Below, in pieces: positions 18,484 to 46,468 of a stretch of DNA of 46,468 nt. Source of the DNA: a virus (lineage: Duplodnaviria; Heunggongvirae; Uroviricota; Caudoviricetes); IMG/VR virus record IMGVR_UViG_2617270998_000006, positions 1 through 46,468 of that record. The stretch is one strand, 5' to 3'. Every line of letters begins with the position of its first letter. The stretch's first letter is position 1. The position numbers were made by a program, and so were the translations under genes. Under the pieces are notes generated by a model. The model had not been told where the DNA came from, searched no databases, and saw only the letters and a program-made list of their open reading frames with translations.

Positions 18484-18485
18484 CG

Positions 18486-29242: not shown

Positions 29243-29259
29243 CCGTCAACGCATAATAA

Positions 29260-29276: not shown

Positions 29277-29292
29277 ATATTTATGGTGGCAT

Positions 29293-29760: not shown

Positions 29761-29818
29761 TGAGCCGCAGTTTTTGTCAACTACGAAGACGTGCCATTAC
29801 TTAACTCCTTGACATCAT

Positions 29819-29844
29819 AGGCGGCCATTAGGCCGCCTTTTTTT
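29819..29844 (+). terminator. terminator-like hairpin in the ref leader
   Basis: AGGCGGCC-ATTA-GGCCGCCT followed by T7, ending 6 nt before the ref ATG. Confidence 0.5.
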
Positions 29845-29850
29845 GACCAT

Positions 29851-30411: not shown

Positions 30412-30599
30412 TAAATATATTATTTTTAATGATAAATGATTGACAACTGACAAGTGACTTCAGTCAGAATCATCACACGCCCGGTACGGATGGATCCCTT
30501 TTCAAATATTCCATGGACGGCACAGTCTGAGTACCGGGCGCTACCTTCAGTTGTATTGCTAAGCCGCCGCTGGTGGCTTTTCTTTTTTGTAGGGGCGCT

Positions 30600-31241
30600 A
30601 TGGATAAGAAAATATGCGTTGTTTCGATGAGCGTCGGCAAACCGGCGTCAATGACTGCTGCATGGATCAATAACGAGCTGATAATGGCTGAGCGGACCAG
30701 CTACCCTGAACGCCGCCGCGACATGGAACTCCAGCTGCTGCGCGAATTGCGAGAAAAAGAGGAAAAGGGTTTTATCGTGCTGGTGGAAGAGGAAAACAGC
30801 TTTATTACTGGTCGAGTTGGCCAGCGTGTAAGGTTGCGCGATCCCTTCATGAACGGCAGGCCGGTACTAATTGAGGCAATGCAGATTTATAAGGAGCTGG
30901 AACGCCAGAAAGCAATCAAGTTACCGCGCAAGGAATCCGGCAAATACATCCTCCACCAAAGCATCTTCGATTCCGAACACGATAAAAAAGGCGATGAATT
31001 TTTCAACATCAATTGGAGCGAAATAACGACAGAGCATGTTCTGACGTTACTCTGTTGCTTTGCGACGGAATACAACAACGTTGCCAGCGCCGACTACATC
31101 AGGGCAATGGCTTGTGAAGTGGATAGTCGTGATGACTCATCGCTGATAGCGTCATATATAAACATCATCAAGAAAACTCAAATTATGGGATGCGCTAGAG
31201 TTCCTCAAGGAATACTCACCGGAAAGAATAATATTCTATAA
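30600..31241 (+). CDS. hypothetical protein (P1 mat-position gene)
   Basis: Start moved to internal ATG (MDKKICVV...); last plus-strand gene before the variable region. Confidence 0.4.
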   Translation: MDKKICVVSMSVGKPASMTAAWINNELIMAERTSYPERRRDMELQLLRELREKEEKGFIVLVEEENSFITGRVGQRVRLRDPFMNGRPVLIEAMQIYKELERQKAIKLPRKESGKYILHQSIFDSEHDKKGDEFFNINWSEITTEHVLTLLCCFATEYNNVASADYIRAMACEVDSRDDSSLIASYINIIKKTQIMGCARVPQGILTGKNNIL

Positions 31242-31338: not shown

Positions 31339-32379
31339 TTACATGGGCTTAACCACAACCTTTCCGTATATATCAAGTTTTGAATGTAATACGTTGACGT
31401 GAGACAATTCTTTATTCGAACTAACTTTATCTAAAATTATATTTTTATCTTTTTCAGTCATGTTATACCCTAAGGTAATTTGCTTGAATGCAGAAAAAGG
31501 AATTTTCTTTAAGTTAATTTCATGATAGTCATGAAAAACATCAGGATACTCATTTAATAGGCAGTCATCAATCGATGGAGAGACAATGCTTCCTATTTTT
31601 CTCTCGCAATCAGCCAATGGAAAAATAATTCTACTTTCATTTTCAGGAAGCCACTCTTCACCTTTTGTATAAAGAAGCCTATTAATAAAAAGCTCGCGAA
31701 CTGAATCTCGATTTAAGATCCCATGCAATGTATTATCTTTATTCTTTATATCTATATTCCTCGATGGCGCAGGATAGCCATTAAATCGCACAGCGCCTTT
31801 ATAATAGGTTACAGATGCTCTATCTTCTGGATTATAACTAACATCACACGGCCGATATATTTTGAAAAAATCGTGTGTTTCATCGAAAACTACAGCAAAC
31901 CCCTTTCCTATCGATGCATAATGAGTCCACATGTGTAGATTGCAATCACTTTTTGATAGAGAGAACACACCAAGATGACAGCTTACGGCTTCTACTAAAT
32001 AATCGTTAAGGTACGTTACTATTTCTTGGAGTTTAGATTCATCATATGAATCCATTGAGGTAAAACCTTCATTGATTAACAAGTGTGGAAAATCCTCTCC
32101 GTATCGTTTCCCGCAAGGTTTTAAATAATACTCTAACTCTTGTATAGATGGGACATAAGATGGATCTCGTTGCATTTTCTTAAATTCATTTCTAGCCCAT
32201 GCGTAATCGGCTGGTGAAAATTTATTAAAAAATGGAAGAAGTCGCGACTCACTCGACGGATCATTAAGATACTTTGGTTGCGTTGCTCTAAAGAAACCAT
32301 CCTCCAGACAAGATGTTCTAATGTGCATGCCCGGCCAAGGTTTATCCATATAACTCTCGCCTATATATTTAACTAACAC
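31339..32379 (-). CDS. DUF2971-like protein
   Basis: 346-aa ORF, visibly AT-rich; N-terminal FxxxxPxxxNDPxxE-like segment (FFRATQPKYLNDPSSE) and central VFSLS...HMWTHYASIGKGFAVVFD resembling the DUF2971 signature. Confidence 0.5.
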   Translation of the reverse strand: MLVKYIGESYMDKPWPGMHIRTSCLEDGFFRATQPKYLNDPSSESRLLPFFNKFSPADYAWARNEFKKMQRDPSYVPSIQELEYYLKPCGKRYGEDFPHLLINEGFTSMDSYDESKLQEIVTYLNDYLVEAVSCHLGVFSLSKSDCNLHMWTHYASIGKGFAVVFDETHDFFKIYRPCDVSYNPEDRASVTYYKGAVRFNGYPAPSRNIDIKNKDNTLHGILNRDSVRELFINRLLYTKGEEWLPENESRIIFPLADCERKIGSIVSPSIDDCLLNEYPDVFHDYHEINLKKIPFSAFKQITLGYNMTEKDKNIILDKVSSNKELSHVNVLHSKLDIYGKVVVKPM

Positions 32380-32431
32380 TGTATGTCGATCCTGTTGTTT
32401 AAGCCCATATCATATGGGCTTTAAATGATTA

Positions 32432-32680
32432 TTAATCAGCATTCAGAAGCAATGCGTTATCTATGATGATCTGCTCCCATTCTTCGAATGCCCGATCGCG
32501 GACACCTTGGGGAACACTGTTAGTTTTGAAATCGACGACCGTCCGCCATTTCCCGTCCGGGCGGTACATGCGCAGAGCTTTACTTCCCCCTTCCCTGCGC
32601 ACCTCAACGTTATGCTTGTCAGCAAACTCTTGTAATGCTCGTAGCGTCCCATGCTTTACTGTGTAGTATCGCTTTTTCAA
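32432..32680 (-). CDS. hypothetical small protein, weak HicA/YcfA-like resemblance
   Basis: 82-aa ORF; segment LQEFADKHNVEVRREGGSKALRMYRPDGKWRTVVDF resembles HicA but lacks the GSHH histidines. Confidence 0.3.
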   Translation of the reverse strand: MKKRYYTVKHGTLRALQEFADKHNVEVRREGGSKALRMYRPDGKWRTVVDFKTNSVPQGVRDRAFEEWEQIIIDNALLLNAD

Positions 32681-32778
32681 GTTTTCTCTCCAGCCTGTGC
32701 CAAGGCTTCAACTTCCAAATCGTAAGACTCAAACTCATAGTCCTGGTCGTCAACTTCTTCAGGCACTGGCAGTAAATG

Positions 32779-33117
32779 CTAGGCTGAGTATATCTGACCA
32801 TTATCAAAACGCTCCTGGCTGTAGAGCGTCGCGGCTATGAGTGTTAGCGCCGGGCGGTCATAACGGTAAATTTTGCGAACGTCACGGTCAACGAGACGAC
32901 CGAAATTACCATAACCGCGCTCCAGTAATAATTTTTTAATTTCCGGCCAGTATGGGCCATAGCTGCGGTACAGACGGGGATTTTTCAGTAATCGCCCGCG
33001 TAGCCCTGACAGGAAGAAATCAACGTATTCGTCTTCTGTCTTTCCTAACAACGCTGTACGGAGTACCGCTTCAAGATATGTTTTATTCGGTTTTATTGTA
33101 TCAGATAGTGTGGCCAT
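32779..33117 (-). CDS. hypothetical protein
   Basis: 112-aa ORF co-oriented with neighbours; no motif recognised. Confidence 0.4.
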   Translation of the reverse strand: MATLSDTIKPNKTYLEAVLRTALLGKTEDEYVDFFLSGLRGRLLKNPRLYRSYGPYWPEIKKLLLERGYGNFGRLVDRDVRKIYRYDRPALTLIAATLYSQERFDNGQIYSA

Positions 33118-33150
33118 ATTATGCGACGCCCGGCGAACCGGGCGCTCCTG

Positions 33151-34518
33151 TTATGCGTATTGTTGGATGACGGCCAGAACGTCCGCCACGTTGTGTTTTG
33201 TCTCGATAATCCACCAGTTACCCGGGAAATCGCTGTTCTTTGCCTTCGCTGGCAGCCAGCGAGCGCCGAATTTCGCCTTGATTGCGTCTTTCGCACGGAA
33301 AAGAATGCCTTTCATGCCGGACGCCTCCTGAAGCCCAAATACCTCGCCAGCGGCGAATTTTGGTGCGTACATCATCTTCAGGTCGGCGGTGGATACGCGA
33401 TAATTCAGACCAAGAGACTGAGCTATGCTGGTGGCATCACCCTGTATTGATGATAACTCTTCTTGTTTCTCGTTTCTGGCGGCAATTTCTTCCTCCGTGA
33501 TGTTGCCAAGGGCCAGGTTTATCCGATCAGCGTCGGCCTGTTTCTCTTCATCGGTGCGCCCGGCAAGAACCGTGTTAATTCTCTGCAATATCTCCACATG
33601 ATTCTTGCGCATGCTGAGCAATTCCGGCGTAACATCGTTAAGAGCCACCAGCCCAAGGATGGCAAGGTCGGAAAACATTGATACCAGGTTGTAGGTCATG
33701 CGATAGCTGAGTTGGCCATAGGCTGATGGCAACTGCACCGCATCCATTTGATAGGCATCCATAAATTTAGAGCCGTCGTTTACGACATCCGCAATTGCCG
33801 GTGTGATTTTCCCTGTGGTGGCGGCCTCCCTGATTGCTGTTACCCACGATTGAGTCAGCGCGGCGACTGCATGATTCAGATTGGCTTTCCGTTCTGCTGC
33901 AATGCGCGCGCTTGCTGCGTCCATTGCCTGCTTGATCTCGTCTTTATTGCTGTAAATGCCAATGGGACCAAACTGTGTTGTGGTGATCTCATAATCTGAC
34001 GCCCGGAACTCATTGGTACCGAAAATGGCATTGGTGACCTCAAGTTCAGAATCCCCGTTACGAGTAGCCCCCTGACTTGTTTTCTCCGGCATTTTTGCGA
34101 TCGCATCCGCTATTTTCTCCTGAATTGCTTCAGGGGATAGCGTATCTCCGTATGACGCGATTACATCGCTATAATTGGATCCAAACAGTTCAGTCAGGAA
34201 TACTTCTGCCAAACGGACCTGGCGGTTATTCCCTTCCGACATCATACCAAGCACCCATTTAGCAATTGACGACTTCAGCGCGCCGTCACGGCGATCCGGG
34301 TAAACCGCATGCTTCAGTGGGTCCGTATAGGTACCAACAAAATCAATGCTATAGCCTGACTCTGTAGTCTGAACGCCGTATGAGTCAGTGATTTTGATCA
34401 TGCCGCGCTGCTGGAAACGGTAGAAATCGTCACAGGAAATGATGTCGTTAATCCCGGCGATGGAGACGCCACCACTGATTTTCTGCATAACAGCATCTTC
34501 ATCGGGAGTTACATCCAC
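33151..34518 (-). CDS. hypothetical protein (455 aa), downstream partner of an overlapping two-gene operon
   Basis: Start overlaps the upstream gene stop by 10 nt; no catalytic or nucleotide-binding motif recognised. Confidence 0.5.
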   Translation of the reverse strand: MDVTPDEDAVMQKISGGVSIAGINDIISCDDFYRFQQRGMIKITDSYGVQTTESGYSIDFVGTYTDPLKHAVYPDRRDGALKSSIAKWVLGMMSEGNNRQVRLAEVFLTELFGSNYSDVIASYGDTLSPEAIQEKIADAIAKMPEKTSQGATRNGDSELEVTNAIFGTNEFRASDYEITTTQFGPIGIYSNKDEIKQAMDAASARIAAERKANLNHAVAALTQSWVTAIREAATTGKITPAIADVVNDGSKFMDAYQMDAVQLPSAYGQLSYRMTYNLVSMFSDLAILGLVALNDVTPELLSMRKNHVEILQRINTVLAGRTDEEKQADADRINLALGNITEEEIAARNEKQEELSSIQGDATSIAQSLGLNYRVSTADLKMMYAPKFAAGEVFGLQEASGMKGILFRAKDAIKAKFGARWLPAKAKNSDFPGNWWIIETKHNVADVLAVIQQYA

Positions 34519-35300
34519 CTGTTATCCAGCGTCTTCACATCCCAGTTACCCGATTTGGTGCCTTTGAAGGTAAAGATGATCTCCACGTCTGCGCGCTGGC
34601 TGTCGAAGTCCAGCGACTTAATGCGAACGATATCACCGGCACAATCGTAGTATTGGCCTACACGCCATGAGCGATCGCCGATAACAAGGAACTCACTCGC
34701 ATGGTTAACCAGGTCAGGATCAACATCCAGAATGCCTTTATTTATTGCATCCTCCACCAGCGGGCGCAGGCGTTTGATATCCGTCGCGGCCTTCTGAGTA
34801 CGGTTCAATAATTTCTCATAGCGGGAGATGGCTTGAGAGATATTAGCCTTGCGCTGAATGGCGCTTTTCAACGACGCGCGATACTGTGCTAACAACATAC
34901 GGTCTGTGTGATGGACACTCCCCCAGCGGGCCTTCCAGTCTGCGTTATCAGCTGCTTTGGCCATTACCGCCTGTTTGAATTTAGCTACCTCGGCGGTGGT
35001 CTTTTCAAATTCCGCTTTGCTTCGCTCTAATTCAGCGGTAAGTACCTCCACATCCTCACCAGCTGCGTGCTGCGCCTTGATGTAGTTCTGAAGGTCGATA
35101 GTAGCCTGTTCTTTCTGGCGAGCGCGTTGCGCGGCTTTCGCCTTATCCATTTGAACCTGCATCATTGCCAGACGTTCACCGTCATCCTTCGCGGTATACA
35201 TCTGCATTTCGATCATATCATTGGCGTCGGCGTTCTCCATTTCTGACTTATCTGAACGGAGGATATCGGAGATCCTGGGCTTCGTTTGGGAAACGTACAA
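34509..35300 (-). CDS. hypothetical coiled-coil protein (about 263 aa)
   Basis: N-terminal half Lys/Ala/Glu-rich and coiled-coil-like; start uncertain (ORF track uses a TTG that lies inside a 16-bp palindrome; first ATG is 20 codons in). Confidence 0.45.
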   Translation of the reverse strand: MYVSQTKPRISDILRSDKSEMENADANDMIEMQMYTAKDDGERLAMMQVQMDKAKAAQRARQKEQATIDLQNYIKAQHAAGEDVEVLTAELERSKAEFEKTTAEVAKFKQAVMAKAADNADWKARWGSVHHTDRMLLAQYRASLKSAIQRKANISQAISRYEKLLNRTQKAATDIKRLRPLVEDAINKGILDVDPDLVNHASEFLVIGDRSWRVGQYYDCAGDIVRIKSLDFDSQRADVEIIFTFKGTKSGNWDVKTLDNRWM

Positions 35301-35309
35301 TATTGTACG
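35294..35309. promoter_or_regulatory. perfect 16-bp palindrome CGTACAATATTGTACG (candidate operator)
   Basis: Overlaps the 5' end of the coiled-coil gene; the half-site ACGTACAATA recurs at 35478-35487. Confidence 0.3.
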
Positions 35310-35478
35310 GTTGCGCTATTGCGGTAGGGTGTACTCCAACGCTATACGGTCTTTGGCAGACCTTTAGGGAAATGAGATAAGCTAAATGCGATAAGAGAAA
35401 AGCAATAACTTAAAGGCAATAGCTGATTACGATAAATCAATCAGTTACTTATCAGTATCGATTAAAAAATGCTCCTAA

Positions 35479-35925
35479 CGTACAATAATTTCCGTTTCCC
35501 AAACCGCCCCCTCCGATCCCGCGCCGGTCTACCCGCAGACGCATCTGAGTTTTCTGGCAAACGTCTATAACCAGAAGGCGCGTGAGTTCTACCATTGTTA
35601 TGGCGTACAGTTGATCGACGCGGCGTATGAAGCGCATCAAGAAAAGGGCGATGTGCCTGTGATGATCACCAAGCATTGCCTGCGTTTTGCCTTTAATCTT
35701 TGCCCGAAACAGGCGAAAGGTAACATCAAAAGCTGGAAAGCGACGCCAATGCAACTGGTCAACGGTGATGAGGTACTGACGCTGAAATTTGGCTGTCGCC
35801 CGTGTGAAATGCACGTTATCGGCAAGATTAAAGATCACATTCTTAAAATGCCGCTGCCGGGCAGCGTGGTGGGTTCCGTCAGTCCGGAAGATCCGATGAA
35901 AACGCTGCCGAAGCGTAAACCTTAA
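35479..35925 (+). pseudogene. 3' fragment of a chromosomal-type gene (possibly U32-family peptidase-like), 5' end missing
   Basis: Open frame starts abruptly after an in-frame TAA with no plausible start or SD for the first 40 codons; GC-rich, unlike the flanking AT-rich DNA; family guess from the C-terminal sequence only. Confidence 0.4.
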
Positions 35926-36029
35926 TCCTTTGCGACATCAGCCCGGTGGCGTTTACCGGGCCTTTGTGTTGGTATTTATTTCCGCCGGTTAACGCCTGGC
36001 CCAAAGCCGACATCCGGCGAGGTGTCCGC

Positions 36030-36158
36030 TTAATGCGCTTTAAACCCCGCCGCAGTCATGAGCAGGCGAAAAAACATGCCCACCGCCGCCAGCGCCAACA
36101 CGCTGCCGCCCCAAAGGATGACCAGCCACATCAGGCGTTTCCAGAGAGAATGTTGCAT
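36030..36158 (-). CDS. small membrane protein (42 aa), putative oxidase accessory subunit
   Basis: MQHSLWKRLMWLVILWGGSVLALAAVGMFFRLLMTAAGFKAH; ATG overlaps the subunit II stop, as for CydX/AppX-type peptides. Confidence 0.4.
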   Translation of the reverse strand: MQHSLWKRLMWLVILWGGSVLALAAVGMFFRLLMTAAGFKAH

Positions 36159-37168
36159 CAGTGATACCCCTCGCCATGTTGCACTTTGCCGCGAAACACA
36201 TAGTAACTCCAGAAGGTGTACACCAAAATCACCGGAATGATGAGCAGCGCACCGACCAGCATAAACCCCTGACTCTGGGCGGGGGCGGCTGCCTGCCAGA
36301 GGGTAACCGAAGGCGGAATAATGTGCGGCCAGATACTGATGCCCAGGCCGCTGAAACCAAGGAAGATTAGCCCGAGCGTCAGCACAAACGGAAACGTGTG
36401 GTTTTCCGGACGACCCAGTGTGCGCCATAACCAGACGCTGAACGCGATCACCAGCACCGGAACCGGCAGCAGATAGCCCAGGTTGGGAAGCGTAAACCAA
36501 CGGTCGGCGATCGCCGGATGCGCTAACGGTGTCCAGAGGCTGATTATCGCAATTGACAACAGCAGGGCCAGCAGCAGTTTTTTCGCGACGCTGCGCATTT
36601 TATCCTGAAGCGGATTTTCGCTTTTCATCACCAGCCAGGTTGCGCCTAAGAGCGCATAGGCAACGACCAGTCCGACGCCACAGAACAGAGTGAAGGGGGT
36701 TAACCAGTCGAACGGCCCGCCGCTGTAGCTGCGACCGGTCACCGGGAAACCGTTGATCACTGCGCCAACCACGATCCCTTGGGCGAAGGTAGCCAGAATC
36801 GACCCGCCGAGAAAAGCATGGTCCCAAAATGGGCGGTGGGCTGGCGTGGCCTTGAAGCGAAACTCGAAGGCCACGCCGCGAAAAATCAGTCCGATCAGCA
36901 TCAGCGTCAACGGAATGGTCAGCGCATCGATAATAACCGCATAGGCCATCGGGAAAGCCCCAAACAGCCCCGCGCCGCCCAGCACCAGCCAGGTTTCATT
37001 ACCGTCCCACACCGGCGCGACGCTATTGACCATCACATCACGATCCTCTGCGTTTCGTGTGACAGGAAACAGAATGCCAATACCCAAATCGAATCCATCC
37101 ATCACGATATACATTAGCGTGGCGAAAACGATGATCACAAACCAGATAACCGATAAATCAATACCCAT
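36158..37168 (-). CDS. cytochrome bd-type quinol oxidase subunit II (CydB/CioB-like)
   Basis: 336-aa polytopic membrane protein with CydB-like N-terminus (VMDGFDLGIG); start overlaps the subunit I stop. Confidence 0.85.
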   Translation of the reverse strand: MGIDLSVIWFVIIVFATLMYIVMDGFDLGIGILFPVTRNAEDRDVMVNSVAPVWDGNETWLVLGGAGLFGAFPMAYAVIIDALTIPLTLMLIGLIFRGVAFEFRFKATPAHRPFWDHAFLGGSILATFAQGIVVGAVINGFPVTGRSYSGGPFDWLTPFTLFCGVGLVVAYALLGATWLVMKSENPLQDKMRSVAKKLLLALLLSIAIISLWTPLAHPAIADRWFTLPNLGYLLPVPVLVIAFSVWLWRTLGRPENHTFPFVLTLGLIFLGFSGLGISIWPHIIPPSVTLWQAAAPAQSQGFMLVGALLIIPVILVYTFWSYYVFRGKVQHGEGYH

Positions 37169-38568
37169 TAGCGATGTGCCTTATGTTGAGAATCGAGGAC
37201 GGCGGCGGAAAGCGGCCTGGCGGGTGTGCCCGGCGGCGGCGCGGAATCATCTTCCAGCGGGCCTTTGCGGATCAGGCGAATCATATAGCTGTAGCCGACG
37301 CCAAAGACTGAGCTGTAGACAACAAAGAAAGCGAGCAACGAAATGCTCATATGTAAATCGCCGTGGGCCGACACCGCGTCGGCAGTACGCTGTAAACCGT
37401 ACACCACCCACGGCTGGCGTCCGACCTCAGTGGTCACCCAGCCCGCGAGAATGGCGATGAGCCCCGAGGGTCCCATCCATAGCGCAAAGCGCAGGAACGG
37501 GCGCGAGGTGTAGAGGCGCTGCCTGTAGCGCAGCCAGAGCGCACAGAGCCCTAGCAGGATCATTAACATGCCCAGGCCGGCCATGATGCGAAACGACCAG
37601 AACACGATCGTCGAGTGAGGGCGATCCTCTTTGGCGAATTCTTTTAGCGCCGGAACCTGTTTATCCAGACTGTGCGTCAGGATCAGGCTTCCCAGCGCCG
37701 GGATCGCCAGTCCATAGCGGGTGCGTTCCTGTTCCATATCCGGCCAGCCAAACAGCAGCAGCGGCGTGGGCTCACCCGGCGGGTTTTCCCAGTGACCTTC
37801 AATCGCGGCGATTTTGGCTGGCTGATGTTTCAGGGTGTTCAGCCCATGCATATCGCCGATTAACGCCTGCACCGGCGCGACAATAAGCGTCATCCACAAC
37901 GCCATGGAAAACATCGTGCGAATGGCTGGCGTTGCGTTGCCGCGCAGCAGATGCCAGGCTGCCGAAGCGCCGACAAACAGCGCGCTACTGAGAAATGCGG
38001 CGACGGACATATGCAGCAGCCGATAAGGGAACGAAGGATTGAAGATAACGGCGAACCAGTCCACGGGCACAACCTGGCCGTTGACGATCTCAAACCCCTG
38101 CGGCGTTTGCATCCAACTGTTAGACGCCAGGATCCAGAAGGTGGAAATGAGGGTGCCAAGCGCCACCATGCAGGTTGAGAAGAAATGCAAACCCGGACCG
38201 ACTTTATTCCAGCCAAACAGCATCACCCCGAGGAATCCGGCTTCAAGGAAGAAAGCGGTCAGCACCTCATAGGTAAGCAACGGCCCGGTAATACTGCCTG
38301 CGAATTCCGAAAAACCGCTCCAGTTGGTGCCGAACTGATAGGCCATCACCAGACCGGAAACCACGCCCATGCCGAAATTTACGGCGAATATTTTTGACCA
38401 GAAGTGGTACAACGAGCGCCAGACCGGATTTTTGCTTTTTAGCCAAAGGCCTTCCAGCACCGCCAGATAACTGGCAAGCCCAATGGTGATCGCCGGAAAG
38501 ATAATGTGAAATGAAACTGTAAAGGCGAACTGGATCCTTGCCAGGTGATACGCATCAAGACCAAACAT
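37168..38568 (-). CDS. cytochrome bd-type quinol oxidase subunit I (short Q-loop, CioA-like)
   Basis: 466-aa membrane protein with CydA-like N-terminus (RIQFAFTVSFHIIFP); about 50 residues shorter than E. coli CydA/AppC, suggesting the short Q-loop subtype. Confidence 0.85.
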   Translation of the reverse strand: MFGLDAYHLARIQFAFTVSFHIIFPAITIGLASYLAVLEGLWLKSKNPVWRSLYHFWSKIFAVNFGMGVVSGLVMAYQFGTNWSGFSEFAGSITGPLLTYEVLTAFFLEAGFLGVMLFGWNKVGPGLHFFSTCMVALGTLISTFWILASNSWMQTPQGFEIVNGQVVPVDWFAVIFNPSFPYRLLHMSVAAFLSSALFVGASAAWHLLRGNATPAIRTMFSMALWMTLIVAPVQALIGDMHGLNTLKHQPAKIAAIEGHWENPPGEPTPLLLFGWPDMEQERTRYGLAIPALGSLILTHSLDKQVPALKEFAKEDRPHSTIVFWSFRIMAGLGMLMILLGLCALWLRYRQRLYTSRPFLRFALWMGPSGLIAILAGWVTTEVGRQPWVVYGLQRTADAVSAHGDLHMSISLLAFFVVYSSVFGVGYSYMIRLIRKGPLEDDSAPPPGTPARPLSAAVLDSQHKAHR

Positions 38569-38691
38569 GCCTGACTCCGCATTAAAAATTGATTCAGCGC
38601 AATTCTAAGCGTGTGAGGCAATGAGGGGCAGAAACAGAACAGACATATTTAACCATAACAGTTTGCAAATCGTTGTGAATTTTATTCACTG

Positions 38692-39150
38692 TTATACACT
38701 GCGAGGCTCACCTGCATTGACCGACGAGAAACCAGAATAAAAAATACCAGCGTCTGGCTGAACAACTTTGCGAACAGATCGCCTCTGGCGTCTGGCGACC
38801 CGGCGACGCGCGGCCTCTTTGCGGTGGGAGTCGGAGTCCATTGCGCTGGCTACGCGCCCGGCAGCAACGAAGTCATAAAGCATATCCTGTGCATGCTCAT
38901 CTACGGTGTCATCACGTAGCGGAATGCGGGCGTATTGTTCTTTGGTAAACACGACTGCACGGTAATTTGAGTGCGGGATTGCATTCATACGTGCCGTGAT
39001 AGTGGCTTCATCTGCCAGTTTAAGGGCATCGCGCATAACTGGAGTGCCATCAGTACCAAGAACAGGAGCACCTCCCACGCTAACGCGCGGGCCCCGAATC
39101 TCACCGTTCTGAAACCACAACAAAAAAACATCAGGAATAAAAAACACCAC
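38692..39150 (-). CDS. hypothetical protein, possibly a gene fragment
   Basis: 152-aa GC-rich ORF upstream of the oxidase operon; no motif recognised; may be a spurious frame in GC-rich DNA. Confidence 0.2.
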   Translation of the reverse strand: MVFFIPDVFLLWFQNGEIRGPRVSVGGAPVLGTDGTPVMRDALKLADEATITARMNAIPHSNYRAVVFTKEQYARIPLRDDTVDEHAQDMLYDFVAAGRVASAMDSDSHRKEAARRRVARRQRRSVRKVVQPDAGIFYSGFSSVNAGEPRSV

Positions 39151-39648
39151 ACAAACACAGCACTGTACCCCCCCTCATAACTGAAAAGCGCCGCCGCCCC
39201 CGCCCGAAGGGCGGGAACAACATCGCTTTTAATTATGAATGTTGTAAGTACATTGTCATCGCTGTCAGTCTTCTGGCTGGAAGTCCTCAGTACACGCTCG
39301 TAAGCGGCCCTCACGGCCCGCTAACGCGGAGATACGCCCCAACTTCGGGTAAACCCTCGTCGGGACCACTCCGACCGCGCACAAAGGCTCTGTCATGGCT
39401 GAAAACGGGTATGGCTTAGCAGGGCCGGGGGTGGGTAAGGTGAAATCTATCAGTCAGTACCGGCTTACGCCGGGCTTCGGCGGTTTTACTCCGGTATCAT
39501 ATGAAACAACAGAGTGCCGCCTTCCATGCCGCTGGCGCGGCATCAGGACAACTGAAGAGTGACGGCGCACATTAACATCAAACAGACTTGTTAAGCAGTC
39601 TTTCAGGGTGTAATCTGAAGACCTGTTAAATAGTCTCAGAGGTGTGTT

Positions 39649-39900
39649 ATGCCCAGTATCATTTTGTCTGACACCAGTGCAAGCGTCAGTGAGCTGAAAA
39701 AAAATCCGATGGCAACTGTCAGTGCCGGAGAGGGGTATCCTGTTGCCATTCTTAACCGGAATCAGCCAGCATTCTACTGTGTCCCTGCTGAGCTCTATGA
39801 AAGAATGCTTGATGCCTTGGATGACCAAGAGCTGGTAAAACTGGTTACTGAACGCAGCAGTCAGCCTCTGCATGATGTGGACCTGGACAGTTATTTATGA
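39649..39900 (+). CDS. RelB/StbD-family antitoxin (Phd/YefM fold)
   Basis: 83-aa ORF (MPSIILSDTSASVSELKKNPMATV...) resembling the plasmid StbD/RelB antitoxin; stop overlaps the toxin start. Confidence 0.75.
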   Translation: MPSIILSDTSASVSELKKNPMATVSAGEGYPVAILNRNQPAFYCVPAELYERMLDALDDQELVKLVTERSSQPLHDVDLDSYL

Positions 39901-40184
39901 CTTATACAGTAAAATTCCGGGATGATGCACTGAAAGAATGGCTCAGACTGGACAAGACCATTCAGCAGCAGTTCGCAAAAAAACTGAAAAAATGCAGTGA
40001 AAATCCTCATATAGCTTCTGCAAAACTACGTGGATTAAAGGACTGCTATAAAATCAAACTTCGCGCATCAGGTTTTCGTCTGGTTTATCAGGTTATTGAT
40101 GATATGTTAATTATTGCGGTCGTCGCAGTAGGTAAACGTGAACGCAGCAACGTTTATCATCTCGCCAGTGAACGGATGAAATAA
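39897..40184 (+). CDS. RelE/StbE-family toxin (ParE/RelE superfamily)
   Basis: 95-aa ORF (MTYTVKFRDDALKEWLRLDKTIQQQFAKKL ... FRLVYQVIDDMLIIAVVAVGKR) with typical RelE-family organisation. Confidence 0.75.
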   Translation: MTYTVKFRDDALKEWLRLDKTIQQQFAKKLKKCSENPHIASAKLRGLKDCYKIKLRASGFRLVYQVIDDMLIIAVVAVGKRERSNVYHLASERMK

Positions 40185-41043
40185 TATCCTGGTCAGCACT
40201 CTTTCTTACCTGCTTCCATTTTTTCAGTGATTCTTTTCCTGCATGCAGAAAAAAAGCCTACCCTGTGGGCAGGCATAACAGACAATCGCACAGTCAGTGT
40301 TGAAATTAATGATGTCACGCATTATACCCGGTGGATACACAAACCATCCCTGCAAATGCACTGGCATCCTAATCAACGTCTGAAACAACTGCAATGGCCG
40401 GACCTGTGATTTCAGAGAAAGTTATTATGTTTATTGAATATAACCGAAGTGATAAATAAAAGTATTATCACCTTTAATATTTATGCTTATTGCGTGGTTT
40501 TATCTGGTTATATAAAGCACAGATGTTCTTATTATTTTCTGAAAAATAACCATATGGATCGATTTCCCCCACCCAGCCGAAGCGGTTCGGCTCGTTCGGC
40601 GTGTCGTCGACACTGAAGCGCTTATCCACTTCGTTCCAGCGGTAAGAGTTGTCGCTGTCGCTGACGAATGCCATCGGGTCGCTAAACAGCGTGATCCGCC
40701 ATGCGATCAAAAAGCGTAAGTGTTTCCGACAGACGAGCCGGTGAAAAAAGTGGTGTGTCTGGCAATACAGGCATCGTCCCCGAAATGGACGATGCCGTTG
40801 AAGGACTGGGGTATGGCAATAAGCCGCTTTATTATCGGATTCAGTGACCGCCTGGACGGTTACTTTTGAGAAAAGGCATTTACACACAATCCTAAACAGA
40901 CTCCTATATTTCAGATTTTGTTATCAACGCATTTCAAATCTCTTAGAAATCATTACTGTCGTCATATTTTCCGAGGCAGCTCACCACCTAACCATGTCTT
41001 ATCAACAATATTTTGTGAAGGATATTTATAATGTAAAGACACA

Positions 41044-44000
41044 TCAGAAACGATATTCCACACTCAACATGGCAGATGTATTATGGTATCCATGTTCTCC
41101 AAGTTGAATGCCTGCATCAGCCCGGAATGCTACTTCTGGTGTTATCATTCCCACAACACCACCATTTATTTCTCCGATATCACGCGCACCATCCTGGTAT
41201 ATACTTACACCATTCATACTGGTGCCGAAAACACGACTATTGTGCAACCAGTGTGCCTCCACAAATGGTCTGAACGGAACCGCATACCGCGTATTTTTAC
41301 CGTTTTTGCTGGTAAGCCATGTTCTTGCTCCCAGGCGGGTGAGAATATTTCCGTTACCGGTATTTTCAATACTGGTTCCGTTACTTTCATGATATTTGTC
41401 TGATTTTACATTCATCCGGACAACCTGAAGCTGCGGCTGAACATACCATTCATGACTTCCCTTGTAATTGTCGGTAAACTCTCCAGCCTTCCATGAATAT
41501 CCTGCTTCCAGAGATACCGTAAACCCTTTTGACTTCCATGACTCAGCAGGCAGCCGTTCTCCATTTATATGATTATCAAACCAGCTGTATTGCAGCCAGC
41601 TATCAAGATAAGAACCATTGTGTGTTTCATCATTGGCATACCATGTTGCATAAAGACCCGCTGTGTATCCATTCATTCTTCCTTCCGAATGGTATCCGGT
41701 GCTCAGGGCATTCGTACTGTTATTATTATGACCATAGCCAGCCATCATACCTGTATGCCAGCGATCGGTACCATTCAGGCTCCACTGAGCTATATCTCCC
41801 CCTATTAACACAACGTAGCTATTCCCCCGGGTTCTCAGCTGACTACTGTTGTCACGCCAGCGATTATGTTTTCCTTTATTATACATCCAGATACCTGCTT
41901 CATTTTCTTCTCCTGTCATGTGGCTGATATACAACTCCTGTCCCTGTCGTTCATACAGATTCGTTACAAACAGATTATTTGCAGCAGCAATACTGGCAAC
42001 ATAGCTACCTGCCTCAGGACGCAAATTATTATCATGGCTTTCCGGTACAGCTTCAGGTTGTGGTACAGGAATGTCTTTTCTGCTAATCAGATACCAGTTA
42101 GTGCTGTTAATCCCCTGACCACGTTTCAGTATGTAATCATAAGCTCCGGCTGTAATACGTTCCGTCTGAATGAATTCAGCATTATCAGCATTGCCACTGA
42201 CGTGAATCACTTCAATCCCATTAAGTGTCTCTGCACCAGTACCACCGGCCTGAGTAACAGCGACACGGGTACGGCCACTGGCATTACCTTTAATCACCAG
42301 ACGATCTGTTTTCGAATTGTCACCACCTGTTTCTGTCTGGAGGAGAATAAGTCCATTTCTGCCAGTGTAATTCCCTCCGACAGTCAGTATATTACCCGGC
42401 ATATATGTAGTGAGATCGACTATACCACTATTGCTCAGATTTCCTGCAACGCCCCCAAACCCGGAGAGTTTGCCCTGCTCTTCAACAATGACCTGGTTAC
42501 TGCCGAGCATCACCGGTGAATCTGCGTTCCCCAGTATCACTGTCCCCTGAATAATATCTGTCATCCCGGTCCATTTTGCGTTATCGCTAATGTTCAGTGC
42601 ACCTGCTCCCGTCTTGCGAACATTACCATAACCACTGATATTGTTGGTAAGCTGCCATGCTGATGTACTGTTCAGAGTTAATGTGCCATAGTTATCAACA
42701 AAGGCTGTCCCCAGATTATCAGCCGTGGATACAGCCAAATGAGCCCCCTTATTCACGGTAAAAACACCGGAAAAATTACGATTATTACCCGTTATATCAA
42801 GCATTCCCCCATTTATGTTCAGAGAACCATCCCCTGCAATAGTACCTGCAGATTCTCCTCCATTATTCAGTATCAGACTTCCGCCATGAATGTTCAGCAC
42901 AGAGCCTGCAGCCGTCAGTAGTTTGCTTATTGTCTGAGGATACCCATTCATATCCAGTTCTGCGCCACGGGATAAATATAAATACTCAGTCCGACCAAGA
43001 GCATCAGGTGCAGCAAGAATTAATACGCCAGATTTAACCTCTGTATTTCCTGTATAATTGTTTGTTGCAGAAAGTATAAGAGTACCATTACCTGATTTTG
43101 TCAGACTTTTGCCGTCCCAGCCATCATATAATAAAGGTGAAAGATTATCGGAAAGAGAAACGCCTATGTTCAGAGTGGCATCTTTTTCTATATTAAAGGT
43201 TCCATATCCCATCCCTTTTGTATTATTCCATCTCAGCATGGATATCAGTTTGTTATCGTCGTCATTTAAAGACGTATAAACATAACTTTCAGCACCTTCT
43301 GTCAGTAATACATTGTATTGTACAATGTGACTATTATCAGCGATCGAGATACCTGTGTCTGACGACAATAATGTGTAATAGTCCTGAGTCCAGTTCTTAA
43401 TTGATGTGTCTATATTAAGCCATGAATCACTTTTTAATGTAATAGTATTTGCGTGAACATTAGCATTTCCTACAGACAGGTTCATAGATGCGTCTTCATC
43501 AATACTTATATTTCCGTTAAAAATGGAGTTCTTGCCTGACAGATAAACAGATGAGCCATTCCCAATCATTAGCCCACCATTAATTGCTGTTGCGTTATTG
43601 ATGTTTTTAATAATTAATTCATTTGTACCATTAACAGGTATACTAGCTAGTTTAATATCACCATTAATCACAGAATCTGAATAAATATCTAATGAATTAT
43701 ACCCGCCAGAAAAAATTATTGATGTATTATAAGCATCTTTTTGGCTATTATATAATCCTGAAAGATTACCATGATTATTAATATGGATATCTTCTCCATA
43801 AACAGAGCAACCACCGTCGGGGCCATATCCCCCCTGAACAATACCGTTATTATTCAAAGTGATTTGATTTCCAGAAATAGCATCTCCCCCTTGTTTTATT
43901 CCATATCCTCCAGATATTATGTTGTCGTTAGTAATGAAAAGATTACTACCATTAATACCATCACCACCGTTTACGCCATTACCGCCCAATATTCCTCCGG

Positions 44001-44541
44001 AATTATGCACTGTAATATTGCTACCGGTTACACCGGAACCACCTGTCCCACCTACATCATCACCTCCGTATATACTTCTGTAATTATCAACTATAATATC
44101 ATCCCCGCTTAACCCTGCACCTCCGCTACTTCCTGAGCCACCAAGACCATTACCCCCATATACATTTCTGTAATTGTTTATAGATATTTTGTTGCCACTA
44201 ACAGCAATTCCACCATTATATCCATCTCCTCCCCAAACACTACCATTATTATTTAGCGTAAAGTTTTCACCGTAGACACCTGCACCACCGATTGATGTAT
44301 TGCTTGTTCCTCCTTTGATGTTAATACTGCTTTCAACAGATAGTATATTTTGAGTATAACTTGTTTTATACGGCACGCTGATATTAAGCGCCGCGTTTCC
44401 ATCAACACCTGTAATACTCCTGGTTATACTTTCAGGTATACCATTACCATTCAGTTGTATTGTTTGCGCACCAGAAAAATGAGACTGCACAGAATAAAGT
44501 ATACTGACCAGAAATTGTAAAATTCGTATATTCTTATTCAT
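41044..44541 (-). CDS. autotransporter (type Va secretion) adhesin-like protein
   Basis: 1165 aa: signal-peptide-like N-terminus, Gly-rich passenger repeats (GGxGxxG, NNYR..GG), C-terminal barrel-like region ending in an aromatic residue (...SVEYRF); visibly AT-rich. Confidence 0.75.
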   Translation of the reverse strand: MNKNIRILQFLVSILYSVQSHFSGAQTIQLNGNGIPESITRSITGVDGNAALNISVPYKTSYTQNILSVESSINIKGGTSNTSIGGAGVYGENFTLNNNGSVWGGDGYNGGIAVSGNKISINNYRNVYGGNGLGGSGSSGGAGLSGDDIIVDNYRSIYGGDDVGGTGGSGVTGSNITVHNSGGILGGNGVNGGDGINGSNLFITNDNIISGGYGIKQGGDAISGNQITLNNNGIVQGGYGPDGGCSVYGEDIHINNHGNLSGLYNSQKDAYNTSIIFSGGYNSLDIYSDSVINGDIKLASIPVNGTNELIIKNINNATAINGGLMIGNGSSVYLSGKNSIFNGNISIDEDASMNLSVGNANVHANTITLKSDSWLNIDTSIKNWTQDYYTLLSSDTGISIADNSHIVQYNVLLTEGAESYVYTSLNDDDNKLISMLRWNNTKGMGYGTFNIEKDATLNIGVSLSDNLSPLLYDGWDGKSLTKSGNGTLILSATNNYTGNTEVKSGVLILAAPDALGRTEYLYLSRGAELDMNGYPQTISKLLTAAGSVLNIHGGSLILNNGGESAGTIAGDGSLNINGGMLDITGNNRNFSGVFTVNKGAHLAVSTADNLGTAFVDNYGTLTLNSTSAWQLTNNISGYGNVRKTGAGALNISDNAKWTGMTDIIQGTVILGNADSPVMLGSNQVIVEEQGKLSGFGGVAGNLSNSGIVDLTTYMPGNILTVGGNYTGRNGLILLQTETGGDNSKTDRLVIKGNASGRTRVAVTQAGGTGAETLNGIEVIHVSGNADNAEFIQTERITAGAYDYILKRGQGINSTNWYLISRKDIPVPQPEAVPESHDNNLRPEAGSYVASIAAANNLFVTNLYERQGQELYISHMTGEENEAGIWMYNKGKHNRWRDNSSQLRTRGNSYVVLIGGDIAQWSLNGTDRWHTGMMAGYGHNNNSTNALSTGYHSEGRMNGYTAGLYATWYANDETHNGSYLDSWLQYSWFDNHINGERLPAESWKSKGFTVSLEAGYSWKAGEFTDNYKGSHEWYVQPQLQVVRMNVKSDKYHESNGTSIENTGNGNILTRLGARTWLTSKNGKNTRYAVPFRPFVEAHWLHNSRVFGTSMNGVSIYQDGARDIGEINGGVVGMITPEVAFRADAGIQLGEHGYHNTSAMLSVEYRF

Positions 44542-44787
44542 ACTGTTTTTTCTTTAGTGATGCATTTTTTATCAACCACACAAGCACATTATTTCATTGA
44601 TACTAATCACATCAGGATGAATGTTTTTTCTCAATAGAAATAAGTGTCTTTATTCCTTACCAATTTATTCTGGTTATTCCTCTTATCCAGACGTCTCGTG
44701 ATACTCCCTGTATTTATTATAGAGTATATATATGTACTGCGTTTAAATCATGAAGACGACAACCTGTTTTACATAAATTATTCCTAA

Positions 44788-45461
<674 letters not shown>

Positions 45462-45523
45462 TCTTACCCAGCAATAGTGGACACGCGGCTAAGTGAGTAA
45501 ACTCTCAGTCAGAGGTGACTCAC

Positions 45524-45823
45524 ATGACAAAAACAGTATCAACCAGTAAAAAACCCCGTAAACAGCATTCGCCTGAATTTCGCAGTGAAGCCCTGAAGAT
45601 TGCTGAACGCATCGGTGTTACTGCCGCAGCCCGTGAACTCAGCCTGTATGAATCACAGCTCTACAACTGGCGCAGTAAACAGCAAAATCAGCAGACGTCT
45701 TCTGAACGTGAACTGGAGATGTCTACCGAGATTGCACGTCTCAAACGCCAGCTGGCAGAACGGGATGAAGAGCTGGCTATCCTCCAAAAGGCCGCGACAT
45801 ACTTCGCGAAGCGCCTGAAATGA
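45524..45823 (+). CDS. insE: IS3 transposase OrfA (InsE, helix-turn-helix)
   Basis: [52 protein letters not shown]... recognised as IS3 OrfA; the ORF track begins at an upstream GTG. Confidence 0.85.
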
Positions 45824-46468
45824 AGTATGTCTTTATTGAAAAACATCAGGCTGAGTTCAGCATCAAAGCAATGTGCCGCGTGCTCCGGGTGGCCCGCAGC
45901 GGCTGGTATACGTGGTGTCAGCGGCGGACAAGGATAAGCACGCGTCAGCAGTTCCGCCAACACTGCGACAGCGTTGTCCTCGCGGCTTTTACCCGGTCAA
46001 AACAGCGTTACGGTGCCCCACGCCTGACGGATGAACTGCGTGCTCAGGGTTACCCCTTTAACGTAAAAACCGTGGCGGCAAGCCTGCGCCGTCAGGGACT
46101 GAGGGCAAAGGCCTCCCGGAAGTTCAGCCCGGTCAGCTACCGCGCACACGGCCTGCCTGTGTCAGAAAATCTGTTGGAGCAGGATTTTTACGCCAGTGGC
46201 CCGAACCAGAAGTGGGCAGGAGACATCACGTACTTACGTACAGATGAAGGCTGGCTGTATCTGGCAGTGGTCATTGACCTGTGGTCACGTGCCGTTATTG
46301 GCTGGTCAATGTCGCCACGCATGACGGCGCAACTGGCCTGCGATGCCCTGCAGATGGCGCTATGGCGGCGTAAGAGGCCCCGGAACGTTATCGTTCACAC
46401 GGACCGTGGAGGCCAGTACTGTTCAGCAGATTATCAGGCGCAACTGAAGCGGCATAATCTGCGTGGAA
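45820..46468 (+). CDS. insF: IS3 transposase OrfB (InsF, DDE integrase core), 3' end outside window
   Basis: Open frame from ATG overlapping the orfA stop ([30 protein letters not shown]...) running to the window edge; -1 frame relative to orfA, as in IS3 family elements. Confidence 0.8.

Follow-up and report, generated by a model that had tools for sequence, protein, structure and literature searches.

The window, the whole stretch of 46,468 nucleotides analysed here, carries a minus-strand open reading frame of 3,498 bp (41044–44541) that starts with ATG and encodes 1165 amino acids; the ORF list and its translation contain no internal stop. The gene lies in an island of cargo genes, with a toxin–antitoxin pair and a phosphatase fragment on its downstream side and two nested insertion sequences on its upstream side. 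The features discussed below are as follows.

31339–44787, no strand: cargo island at the P1 res-mod position, placed by P1 gene order, with a DUF2971 ORF, unknown ORFs, cydAB, phd/relE and aatA
39649–40184, plus: phd/yefM-relE/parE toxin–antitoxin pair (Pfam), which travels with aatA
40474–40887, minus: PhoX-like alkaline phosphatase fragment between relE and aatA (weak Pfam PhoX match, E=0.0045)
41044–44541, minus: aatA coding sequence, 3,498 bp, 1165 aa, 123.6 kDa (intact ORF, primer mapping, amino acid identity)
41047–41892, minus: C-terminal β-barrel translocator, residues 884–1165, with a final Phe (PF03797, TIGR01414, 4mee)
42049–42066, minus: VPQPEA hexapeptide in the passenger–barrel linker, residues 826–831, one copy
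42127–42393, minus: autochaperone domain, residues 717–805 (AC_1, E=6e-24; IcsA autochaperone structure 3ml3, E=3e-24)
43018–43104, minus: PATR, residues 480–508 (Pfam PF12951 and TIGR02601)
43240–43413, minus: VirG/IcsA insertion domain (VID), residues 377–434 (Pfam PF22364, E=1.6e-7; aligned to IcsA structure 5ke1)
43759–44307, minus: seven Gly-rich passenger repeats, residues 79–261 (repeat parsing; aligned to the IcsA Gly-rich region)
44467–44541, minus: putative Sec-type signal peptide, residues 1–25, MNKNIR / ILQFLVSILYSV / ..SGA/Q (read by eye, with the hydropathy profile)
44542–44787, minus: regulatory region upstream of aatA with 30% GC and a promoter of the APEC_O1/IMT5155 type (nucleotide identity)
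44621–44634, minus: FNR box ATGTTTTTTCTCAA, an exact match to the published pAPEC-O1-ColBM aatA site (−79)
44784–44787, no strand: CTAA at the junction, the tetranucleotide targeted by IS5-family elements (sequence)
44788–45458, plus: left 671 bp of ISKpn26 (IS5 family), with the left inverted repeat (IRL) GGAAGGTGCGAACAAG located and a truncated transposase, named from the annotation of relatives
45459–46468, plus: IS3 inserted in ISKpn26 and running off the window, starting with TGATCTTACCCAGC, which we take to be the IS3 terminal sequence; orfA at 45515–45823 (sequence and ORFs)

The 1165-residue gene is an intact aatA, encoding APEC autotransporter adhesin A, a well-studied adhesin of E. 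coli strains pathogenic for poultry. Solved structures and named reference genes, compared at the DNA and protein level, settled this identity; the type genes are APECO1_O1CoBM96 of pAPEC-O1-ColBM and ECBD_0123 of BL21, both compared in sequence, and the IMT5155 gene, compared through its primers. The published gene has the same length. AatA of BL21, which has a single copy, is also equal in length and matches the window at 99.66% amino acid and 99.8% nucleotide identity, and the pAPEC-O1-ColBM type gene (CDS 81930–85427) encodes a protein 97.25% identical. Sixteen aatA-specific primers, a count that takes in the gene-specific parts of tailed cloning primers, map at their published ORF coordinates with 0–1 mismatch, two of them in the promoter region. 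They include 4031–4036, B11, RT and FP; primers 4031–4036, which generate amplicons A, B and C of the published PCR scheme, are correctly oriented, and all IMT5155 aatA primers match the window. The preliminary description of this DNA stands; the gene is already named and has a literature of its own (Dai et al. 2010; Li et al. 2010). Among 5,426 complete genomes of E. coli, 688 carry it (~13%).

The predicted protein has the domain content of a classical type Va autotransporter. Pfam places the beta-domain at residues 884–1143 (PF03797, E=1e-34), AC_1 and Pertactin domains across 717–818, a PATR motif and the VirG insertion domain. The barrel also matches TIGR01414 (E=4e-96), residues 711–1165 match the crystal structure of the AIDA-I translocator, 4mee (E=1.4e-73), and the chain ends in EYRF, the aromatic terminus typical of the 12-stranded barrels of type Va autotransporters. 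At the N-terminus, n-, h- and c-regions and the SGA/Q site are visible by eye, with a consistent hydropathy profile; published work that applied SignalP 3.0 to the near-identical IMT5155 protein predicted a signal peptide there. Each Gly-rich rung is 25–30 residues long and terminates in [ILV]x[ILV][NDH]N. A single polypeptide with the autochaperone ahead of the barrel, together with PATR, VID and homology to the solved IcsA β-helix fragments 5ke1 (E=2.6e-56) and 3ml3, points to a β-helical passenger. A complete type Va autotransporter with Gly-rich passenger repeats and a C-terminal barrel, as first described, is thus what the sequence encodes, with a detectable translocator and an uninterrupted frame. 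Tandem Repeats Finder detected only two trivial two-copy repeats in aatA, so the window allele has no DNA-level array. The VPQPEA copy number differs by allele: four copies are present in one relative (L004), whose protein has 1183 residues, and other relatives have coding sequences of 3,537 and 3,516 bp.

The preliminary description had proposed comparison with AIDA-I, Ag43 or YfaL-type proteins, which holds for the AIDA-I-like barrel; the passenger is of IcsA/VirG type. By BLASTP against full-length IcsA of Shigella flexneri (pINV), AatA residues 45–550 align to IcsA 84–597 (35% identity, E=1e-52), including the Gly-rich repeats, and residues 592–1165 align to IcsA 494–1102 (34% identity, E=9e-99). 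The likeness extends from the Gly-rich repeats through VID, PATR and the autochaperone to the barrel. On these alignments the AatA passenger resembles IcsA/VirG from end to end, at ~35% identity, and only the barrel is AIDA-I-like. A published phylogeny likewise puts AatA and IcsA together in autotransporter Group 8. A tblastn search of plasmids with residues 60–380, the Gly-rich N-terminus, returned only AatA and a small number of distantly related autotransporters of E. coli, and missed IcsA. Low-complexity filtering probably accounts for the miss, since direct BLASTP aligned the same region. AatA differs from IcsA in its short signal peptide (25 residues), in a proline-rich VPQPEA linker in place of the IcsA SSRRASS linker, for which the BLASTP alignment found no counterpart, and in a duplicated PATR-type segment (~480–590 and ~640–700 both align to IcsA ~525–597). 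Homology over the full length, Gly-rich repeats and VID included, might suggest by analogy that AatA, like IcsA, recruits N-WASP and actin of the host. We consider this close to negligible, given the low identity, the short signal peptide and the missing SSRRASS segment; to our knowledge, APEC are also not known for spread by actin-based motility. An autotransporter review, moreover, gives no host partner for AatA. As for AIDA-I, a member of the SAAT group with TibA and Ag43, the translocator and autochaperone are closely related (Dai et al. also found the AatA C-terminus nearest AIDA-I), and the passenger has no relation to the repeats of AIDA-I. A full-length AIDA-I-type match was rejected, since NCBIfam NF033176 aligns only residues 649–1165, scoring 275 bits where the cut-off is 1200. 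Among the neighbours of aatA (phd/relE, the phoX fragment, cydAB and IS elements), no heptosyltransferase gene of the aah/tibC type is present.

The AT-richness noted at first inspection is real but uneven. GC content is 41.3% for the ORF and 30.1% for the 246-bp upstream region, against 47.6% for the window; within the ORF it is 36.5% over codons 1–480 and 44.5% in the barrel part. The upstream 247 bp are 98.8% identical to pAPEC-O1-ColBM and only 82% identical to BL21. According to Dai et al., the aatA promoter lies no more than 100 bp from the ATG, and cloning primer WSH18F maps at −98 to −80. At the pAPEC-O1-ColBM gene, FNR bound the promoter fragment by EMSA and expression was lower in an fnr mutant. 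We place the promoter by this published mapping and not by a sigma-70 scan, which over 40185–44900 found none on the coding strand in the aatA upstream region (15 in total, with 15.8 expected). Terminator predictions over the same interval were at chance level, and Rfam returned no family at gathering score across the whole window. The composition raises an alternative in which aatA would be intact yet effectively silent cargo, xenogeneically silenced (for example by H-NS), hitch-hiking with the phd/relE addiction module and conferring no adhesion phenotype. The low GC upstream and in the first 480 codons fits this; so would the toxin–antitoxin pair that always accompanies aatA and could keep it in place even if adhesion were not selected. 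Reports of AatA in vitro are contradictory: Dai et al. state that Li et al. did not detect the protein in APEC_O1 and that transcription of the BL21 copy is weak. On the other side, the APEC_O1/IMT5155-type promoter is transcribed in LB, the native promoter drives adhesion in a K-12 strain, and the FNR box is intact. A full-length ORF also persists at ≥98% identity in 665 complete genomes, an argument that purifying selection acts on it. Silent carriage seems unlikely to us.

Upstream of aatA, the sequence ...TTC is followed by CTAA (44784–44787) and then by GGAAGGTGCGAACAAG, so that the IS5-family inverted repeat begins at 44788, 247 bp from the gene. The range given in the preliminary description ended at 44788, the first base of this repeat. 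Its statement that the upstream region ends at an IS5 target CTAA holds, with the refinement that the element is ISKpn26 cut by an IS3. ISKpn26 homology stops at 45458, the IS3 breakpoint being 45458/45459, and the ISKpn26 transposase ORF is shortened to 201 residues. Records matching the IS3 end of the window carry the annotation 'IS3-like element IS3 family transposase'. We looked for 16-bp terminal inverted repeats, a YTAR target and a 4-bp duplication; the window holds the left end only (IRL and CTAA). One relative with the same left junction (L003) has the whole element, flanked by CTAA on the left and CTAG on the right, and lacks 19 bp found in the uninterrupted relatives. ISKpn26 is thus not a clean insertion, and L003 has no simple target duplication. 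Among the best 25 plasmid matches, about 3 have the IS at this junction and the remainder end exactly there; the CTAA/IRL junction is identical in an E. marmotae IncY plasmid. The right end of the nested ISKpn26::IS3 was sought in relatives, of which CP099028.1 and p13QT4 have other IS arrangements, CP099028.1 with an IS3-family element ~150 bp from the aatA ATG, an independent hit of the same upstream region. ISKpn26 is a later, secondary insertion in a few lineages and not the vehicle of aatA, because most copies lack it and because IS1 brackets aatA in the phage phi456 (below).

IS5 insertions upstream of bglGFB, flhDC and glpFK activate expression. By analogy, ISKpn26 at −247 could itself be functional, altering aatA expression by disrupting a silencing nucleoprotein structure, and the junction could have been selected. 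It lies in 30% GC DNA a little upstream of the promoter, interrupts neither the −100 promoter nor the FNR box, has the same junction as in the E. marmotae plasmid and falls in a region struck independently by other IS, as in CP099028.1. The small share of plasmid matches with an IS here counts against such a role, as does the fact that AT-rich DNA with CTAA/CTAG motifs is a preferred IS5 target anyway. We judge a regulatory function of this insertion distinctly unlikely.

The window is, by its gene content and identity, a P1-like phage-plasmid, of which it spans about half. Positions 1404–13521 are 97.7% identical to P1 (parA, parB, repA) and 13516–25000 are 98% identical to SJ46/P1 (pmg genes); repA/parAB, pmg, c1, cre, ref and mat match P1 at 97–98% identity, and c1, cre, ref, mat, phd/doc and terminase genes were found in the closest relatives. 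The P1 genes cre, ref and mat stop at 31241, and the island occupies the place of res-mod, known as variable region 1 of P1-like phage-plasmids, so that the cargo position first proposed for the gene is borne out. Segment 33000–41043 is 100% identical in about 28 plasmids of E. coli, Shigella and Salmonella. The toxin–antitoxin pair adjoins aatA on IncF, IncHI1B-typed and P1-like plasmids, and a relE remnant lies beside aatA in BL21, where the phoX stretch has a counterpart annotated as an incomplete alkaline phosphatase (3′ flank 99.4% identical). MOB-suite replicon labels are unreliable for P1-like elements: the clearly P1-like pLAO33 is typed IncFIB/IncHI1B. Among the other island genes, the DUF2971 ORF matches PADLOC PDC-S31, a candidate defence gene, and the ORFs of 455 and 263 residues matched nothing in PADLOC, Pfam or NCBIfam.

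We read the locus as an intact and probably expressible aatA allele encoding a classical type Va autotransporter, carried as cargo by a P1-like phage-plasmid (probability about 0.93). Its function can be read from published alleles 97–99.7% identical, which would imply adhesion, virulence, colonisation, aggregation and FNR activation. Published experiments demonstrated adhesion to DF-1 chicken fibroblasts, adhesion inhibition and a functional native promoter; a contribution to virulence in chickens is attributed to Li et al. in a citing paper; and a review describes AatA as anchored in the outer membrane and promoting cell aggregation and colonisation. The suggestion that a surface adhesin would add a colonisation trait thus meets an experimentally characterised adhesin and virulence factor. 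The steps of a mechanism can be proposed from the autotransporter family, the window itself showing domain content. The 25-residue signal peptide would route the 124-kDa precursor through Sec, and BAM would insert the AIDA-I-like barrel into the outer membrane. The passenger would be threaded outward C-terminus first, fold on the autochaperone into a β-helix and remain attached to the cell surface. In the window the gene sits as cargo with phd/relE and the phoX remnant in an island that takes over the P1 res-mod position; ISKpn26 landed later, sparing promoter and FNR box, and IS3 then hit ISKpn26. A different main role for AatA is conceivable, either in contact between bacteria (autoaggregation, biofilm) or in the phage life cycle, for instance masking the surface against superinfection. 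The reported aggregation, the link of most Group 8 autotransporters to aggregation or biofilm and the candidate defence gene in the res-mod slot speak for this. Direct DF-1 adhesion and adhesion-inhibition data speak against it, and aatA is not tied to phages, as 486 of the 736 places in which it occurs are chromosomal. We regard such a role as very improbable and retain host-cell adhesion.

Spread of the aatA trait by phage infection as well as plasmid inheritance is plausible because phi456 (OR339795.1), a P1-like prophage of APEC DE456 that carries aatA at 99.8% identity, forms infectious particles; it was sequenced from purified particles and gives plaques on MC1061. The phi456 record labels the gene (Orf60) 'hypothetical protein', and the accompanying paper reported no virulence genes. 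Curing DE456 of the prophage lowered DF-1 adhesion tenfold and reduced organ colonisation, which the authors attributed to indirect effects on type 1 fimbriae. We tentatively propose, at a little under even odds, that aatA is a phage-transmissible adhesin, captured at least twice by P1-like phage-plasmids (in the res-mod slot and bracketed by IS1 in phi456) and deliverable by infection as lysogenic conversion, sometimes with resistance genes such as tet(A). Orf60 would then be a direct cause of the loss of adhesion and colonisation on curing, and the overlooked gene would offer a simple explanation for a published prophage-dependent phenotype. The link of aatA to phage transfer is plausible, testable and apparently unreported. 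The PGAP name for the protein is 'autotransporter outer membrane beta-barrel domain-containing protein', and screens of the VirulenceFinder type give it no name, so its spread on phage-plasmids has been overlooked. It is a colonisation factor carried by P1-like elements that pass among E. coli, Shigella and Salmonella, some also with resistance genes, and that can be transferred by infection without conjugation.

The phi456 locus shares with the window a P1-like backbone and the same aatA segment (window 40990–44788, 99.7%). Its aatA lies beside pmgM, on a 5.7-kb piece flanked by two IS1 copies in direct orientation, whereas that of the window occupies the res-mod slot, and it lacks both phd/relE and the ISKpn26 junction. 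Compared with AatA of APEC_O1 (pAPEC-O1-ColBM), IMT5155 and BL21/REL606, the window allele has the same length of 3,498 bp, 97.3–99.7% protein identity and the same domain order; it shares promoter type and FNR box with APEC_O1/IMT5155 and its 3′ flank with BL21. The three flank variants that have been published (fecI, ykgN, eitD) are all absent from the window, whose context is instead the P1-like res-mod slot with ISKpn26::IS3 247 bp upstream. In the work of Dai et al., more than 50% of aatA flanks had no assigned type, and the P1-like context is among the flank types that their typing missed.

The open reading frame at 41044-44541 of the window is, on its sequence, aatA, 'APEC autotransporter adhesin A' (APEC, poultry-pathogenic Escherichia coli). 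At exactly 3,498 bp it has the length reported by Dai et al., whose aatA ORF encodes a 124-kDa protein (PMC2944236). All oligonucleotides in the supplementary table of that study (PMC2944236) were mapped onto the window. The three pairs used for screening (4031-4036), those for expression cloning and for qRT-PCR, and several sequencing primers matched with 0-1 mismatch at positions agreeing with the published ones (the cloned fragment, for example, corresponds to ORF nt 1375-2596), and two promoter-region primers were placed at -98 and -168 relative to aatA. The pAPEC-O1-ColBM type gene (Li et al.) is CDS 81930-85427, also 3,498 bp, a position that fits the published FNR box coordinates for APECO1_O1CoBM96; its protein is 97.25% identical to that of the window. 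BL21 carries one aatA, called a homologue by Dai et al. (PMC2944236), with 99.8% DNA identity to the window over the full length and 99.66% protein identity. The identical AatA protein is already public on 14 contigs, and the 90%-identity cluster around it has 6,327 members, generically named throughout. Of the complete E. coli genomes searched (5,426), 688 contain aatA, in 486 places on chromosomes and 250 on plasmids; 233 PLSDB plasmids also have it, Salmonella and Shigella ones among them. The gene is thus already known and common; the preliminary observation is confirmed and its interpretation supported.

The gene and the domains detected in its product are as follows.
41044-44541, minus strand: aatA, an uninterrupted ORF of 1165 codons with an ATG start
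AatA residues 377-434: VirG insertion domain (Pfam)
AatA residues 480-508: passenger-associated transport repeat (Pfam)
AatA residues 717-805: type 1 autochaperone (Pfam)
AatA residues 884-1143: autotransporter beta-domain (Pfam, E=1e-34)

Residues 716-1165 also match the generic barrel model of NCBIfam (E=4e-96), while no named full-length family model in NCBIfam reached its cut-off with AatA. The N-terminus, MNKNIR followed by the hydrophobic core ILQFLVSILYSV and SGA↓Q, reads as a predicted normal Sec signal peptide. Residues 79-261 are made up of seven Gly-rich units (25-30 aa), every one with a terminal strand [ILV]x[ILV][NDH]N; the C-terminus is EYRF and the calculated mass 123.6 kDa. 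The frame is free of interruptions and the translocator domain is present, and the complete type Va autotransporter of the preliminary description, with Gly-rich passenger repeats and a C-terminal barrel, is therefore borne out. The proline-rich linker between passenger and barrel contains the hexapeptide VPQPEA once in the window's 1165-aa protein (42049-42066) and, by alignment, four times in a 1183-aa allele (L004, a related locus, 27260-30811). Judged by length alone, other alleles differ too, with CDSs of 3,537 bp in CP099028.1 (L009, 6645-10181) and 3,516 bp in another relative (L010, 24226-27741).

The AT-richness reported for this region holds, unevenly along the gene: GC is 41.3% for the ORF against 47.6% for the window, 36.5% for the first 480 codons and 30.1% for the 246 bp upstream. 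The 247-bp upstream region is 98.8% identical to the APEC_O1/IMT5155 type and 82% identical to the BL21 type, which is described as weakly transcribed. The published FNR box ATGTTTTTTCTCAA is unchanged at 44621-44634; a simple promoter scan of the aatA region was uninformative. The type Va domain set, the reading frame and the regulatory region of the window's aatA are all intact.

From the family, AatA would be exported via Sec, its barrel inserted in a BAM-dependent manner and its passenger translocated C-to-N, folding into a beta-helix nucleated by the autochaperone and displayed on the surface. For alleles 97-99.7% identical, FNR is an activator of aatA transcription that binds the promoter fragment, and AatA contributes to colonisation, aggregation and virulence. 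Expressed from its native promoter, which maps no further than 100 bp from the ATG, the gene lets a fim-negative K-12 strain adhere to DF-1 chicken fibroblasts, and anti-AatA antibody inhibits adhesion of IMT5155 (PMC2944236).

The window belongs to a P1-like phage-plasmid. Identity to P1 is 97.7% across 1404-13521 (parA, parB, repA), and across 13516-25000 (pmg genes) it is 98% to both SJ46 and P1. In the closest relatives, phd/doc, the terminase genes, c1, cre, ref and mat are present and arranged as in P1. The last P1 gene in the window is mat, ending at 31241, after which an island occupies the position of the P1 restriction-modification genes (the res-mod slot), described in a survey of P1-like elements as variable region 1, a hot-spot for foreign DNA. 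It holds a DUF2971 protein, several unknown ORFs, a cytochrome bd oxidase operon, phd/relE, a phoX remnant and aatA, and the proposal that the adhesin is phage-plasmid cargo stands. About 28 plasmids of E. coli, Shigella and Salmonella, 74-93 kb in size, share the 8 kb adjoining aatA at 100% identity. Features of the island other than aatA are listed below.
31339-32379, minus strand: DUF2971 protein, matching the PADLOC candidate system PDC-S31 (E=3e-16)
33151-34518 and 34509-35300, both minus strand: overlapping ORFs of 455 and 263 aa
36158-38568, minus strand: cytochrome bd-type oxidase operon, subunit I of 466 aa and subunit II of 336 aa

In relatives, a SIR2 protein (L003, an E. marmotae IncY plasmid) or an EAL-domain protein together with a large helicase (L010) occurs near the DUF2971 position. 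Such variation at one position follows the pattern of a defence hot-spot. The 455- and 263-aa ORFs, which had zero matches in Pfam, NCBIfam and PADLOC, could form an undescribed defence or accessory system; the pair lies in the P1 restriction-modification slot, beside the candidate defence gene. The cytochrome bd-type operon is metabolic cargo of foreign origin, with a GC content of 56.8%, well over the window's 47.6%. Its subunit I falls far short of the equivalog cut-offs for E. coli CydA/AppC. Relatives have a DUF2474 gene annotated adjacent to cydB in the corresponding stretch. Plasmids that are clearly P1-like, pLAO33 for one, receive the MOB-suite type IncFIB/IncHI1B in PLSDB (typing lines of L004 and L001), so that replicon labels under-report P1-like phage-plasmids.

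The aatA upstream region terminates in CTAA (44784-44787), and GGAAGGTGCGAACAAG, the left inverted repeat of an IS5-family element, starts at 44788; the preliminary description, which had this region ending at an IS5 target CTAA, was right to within one base. The element is ISKpn26. It is absent from most aatA copies, whose matches stop exactly at the junction; ISKpn26 is therefore a late arrival rather than the vehicle. Uninterrupted relatives (for example L001, 12342-12420) read CTAA-GTATTTTTCCAGAGAAGAC-CTAG; NZ_AP025206.2 is a record with this region uninterrupted. The E. marmotae plasmid (L003, 12346-13545) has a complete IS with the left junction found at 44784-44803 of the window; the left flank of this IS is CTAA and its right flank CTAG, and the 19 bp GTATTTTTCCAGAGAAGAC beside ISKpn26 are missing. 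These flanks and the 19-bp loss therefore do not fit a simple insertion with target duplication, and an adjacent deletion or a recombination between two insertions is needed at this site. In the window, ISKpn26 is split by IS3 at 45458/45459, its transposase shortened to 201 aa. The window ends within this IS3, which begins with TGATCTTACCCAGC, a sequence that we take to be the IS3 terminus. None of the relatives examined has the nested ISKpn26::IS3 structure. In CP099028.1 (L009, 10330-11558) a different IS3-family element is found between aatA and ISKpn26, about 150 bp upstream of the gene; the AT-rich upstream region is therefore a repeated IS target. It appears improbable that ISKpn26, inserted at -247, alters aatA expression.

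IncF and IncHI1B-typed plasmids carry the module relE - phoX remnant - aatA - upstream region too, and the BL21 chromosome has a truncated form of it. The phd/relE genes and the PhoX-like pseudogene fragment (39649-41043 in the window) accompany aatA on IncF, IncHI1B-typed and P1-like plasmids alike; in BL21 (L006, 4034-4826) their remnants adjoin aatA and the 3' flank is 99.4% identical. In relatives without ISKpn26, the sequence upstream of aatA leads into an IS3-family remnant, followed by traH (PF06122) and traF (PF13728), both truncated; in L001 (13059-15071) an IS3-family integrase remnant cuts these genes. These truncated genes suggest that the module once resided on an F-type conjugative plasmid. 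The window's aatA has none of the three flank variants of Dai et al. (fecI, ykgN, eitD); flanks were unidentified in more than half of their aatA-positive strains (PMC2944236).

In the phage collection aatA occurs in one record, Escherichia phage phi456 (OR339795.1, classified Punavirus P1), with 99.8% identity. This counterpart of 41044-44541 (L008, 14001-17498) is annotated 'hypothetical protein, Orf60'. The phi456 DNA was sequenced from purified particles, the phage forms plaques on MC1061, and VirulenceFinder returned zero virulence genes (PMC10967188). When APEC DE456 was cured of phi456, DF-1 adhesion fell tenfold and the organs of chickens held about tenfold fewer bacteria, which the authors ascribed to reduced type 1 fimbriae; neither 'aatA' nor 'autotransporter' occurs in the text of their paper (PMC10967188). 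Because AatA is a demonstrated adhesin for the same DF-1 line, the cargo aatA is an obvious candidate for the cause of the phi456-dependent adhesion phenotype. In phi456 the gene lies beside pmgM, in a 5.7-kb segment (L008, 13029-18763) between two directly oriented IS1, whereas in the window it lies in the res-mod slot (island 31339-44787); this makes two independent acquisitions of aatA by P1-like backbones, at the least. In p13QT4, another P1-like plasmid, the res-mod slot holds aatA, and tet(A) follows a few kb further on. Our literature search found no paper connecting aatA with P1-like elements. What remains new is the vehicle, a phage-plasmid that may be able to move the adhesin by infection, and the proposed reinterpretation of the phi456 phenotype.

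Of the comparators first proposed (AIDA-I, Ag43 and YfaL), AIDA-I is apt for the C-terminal part of the protein. The AatA translocator and autochaperone are closest to the AIDA-I crystal structure 4mee (E=1.4e-73), but the passenger is not AIDA-I-like: the AIDA-I family model covers residues 649-1165 alone, with a score far under the cut-off. The passenger is instead, judged by alignment, homologous to Shigella IcsA/VirG. Solved IcsA fragments match AatA (5ke1, E=2.6e-56; 3ml3, E=3e-24), and BLASTP against full-length IcsA from pINV-Y394 aligned IcsA 84-597 with AatA 45-550 (35% identity, E=1e-52) and IcsA 494-1102 with AatA 592-1165 (34% identity, E=9e-99), the Gly-rich repeats falling inside the alignments. 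AatA differs in its short signal peptide and in lacking the SSRRASS-containing linker of IcsA, in whose place stands the proline-rich VPQPEA linker. A published phylogeny already puts both proteins in 'Group 8', whose members remain anchored in the outer membrane, so that their kinship is a refinement rather than a discovery.
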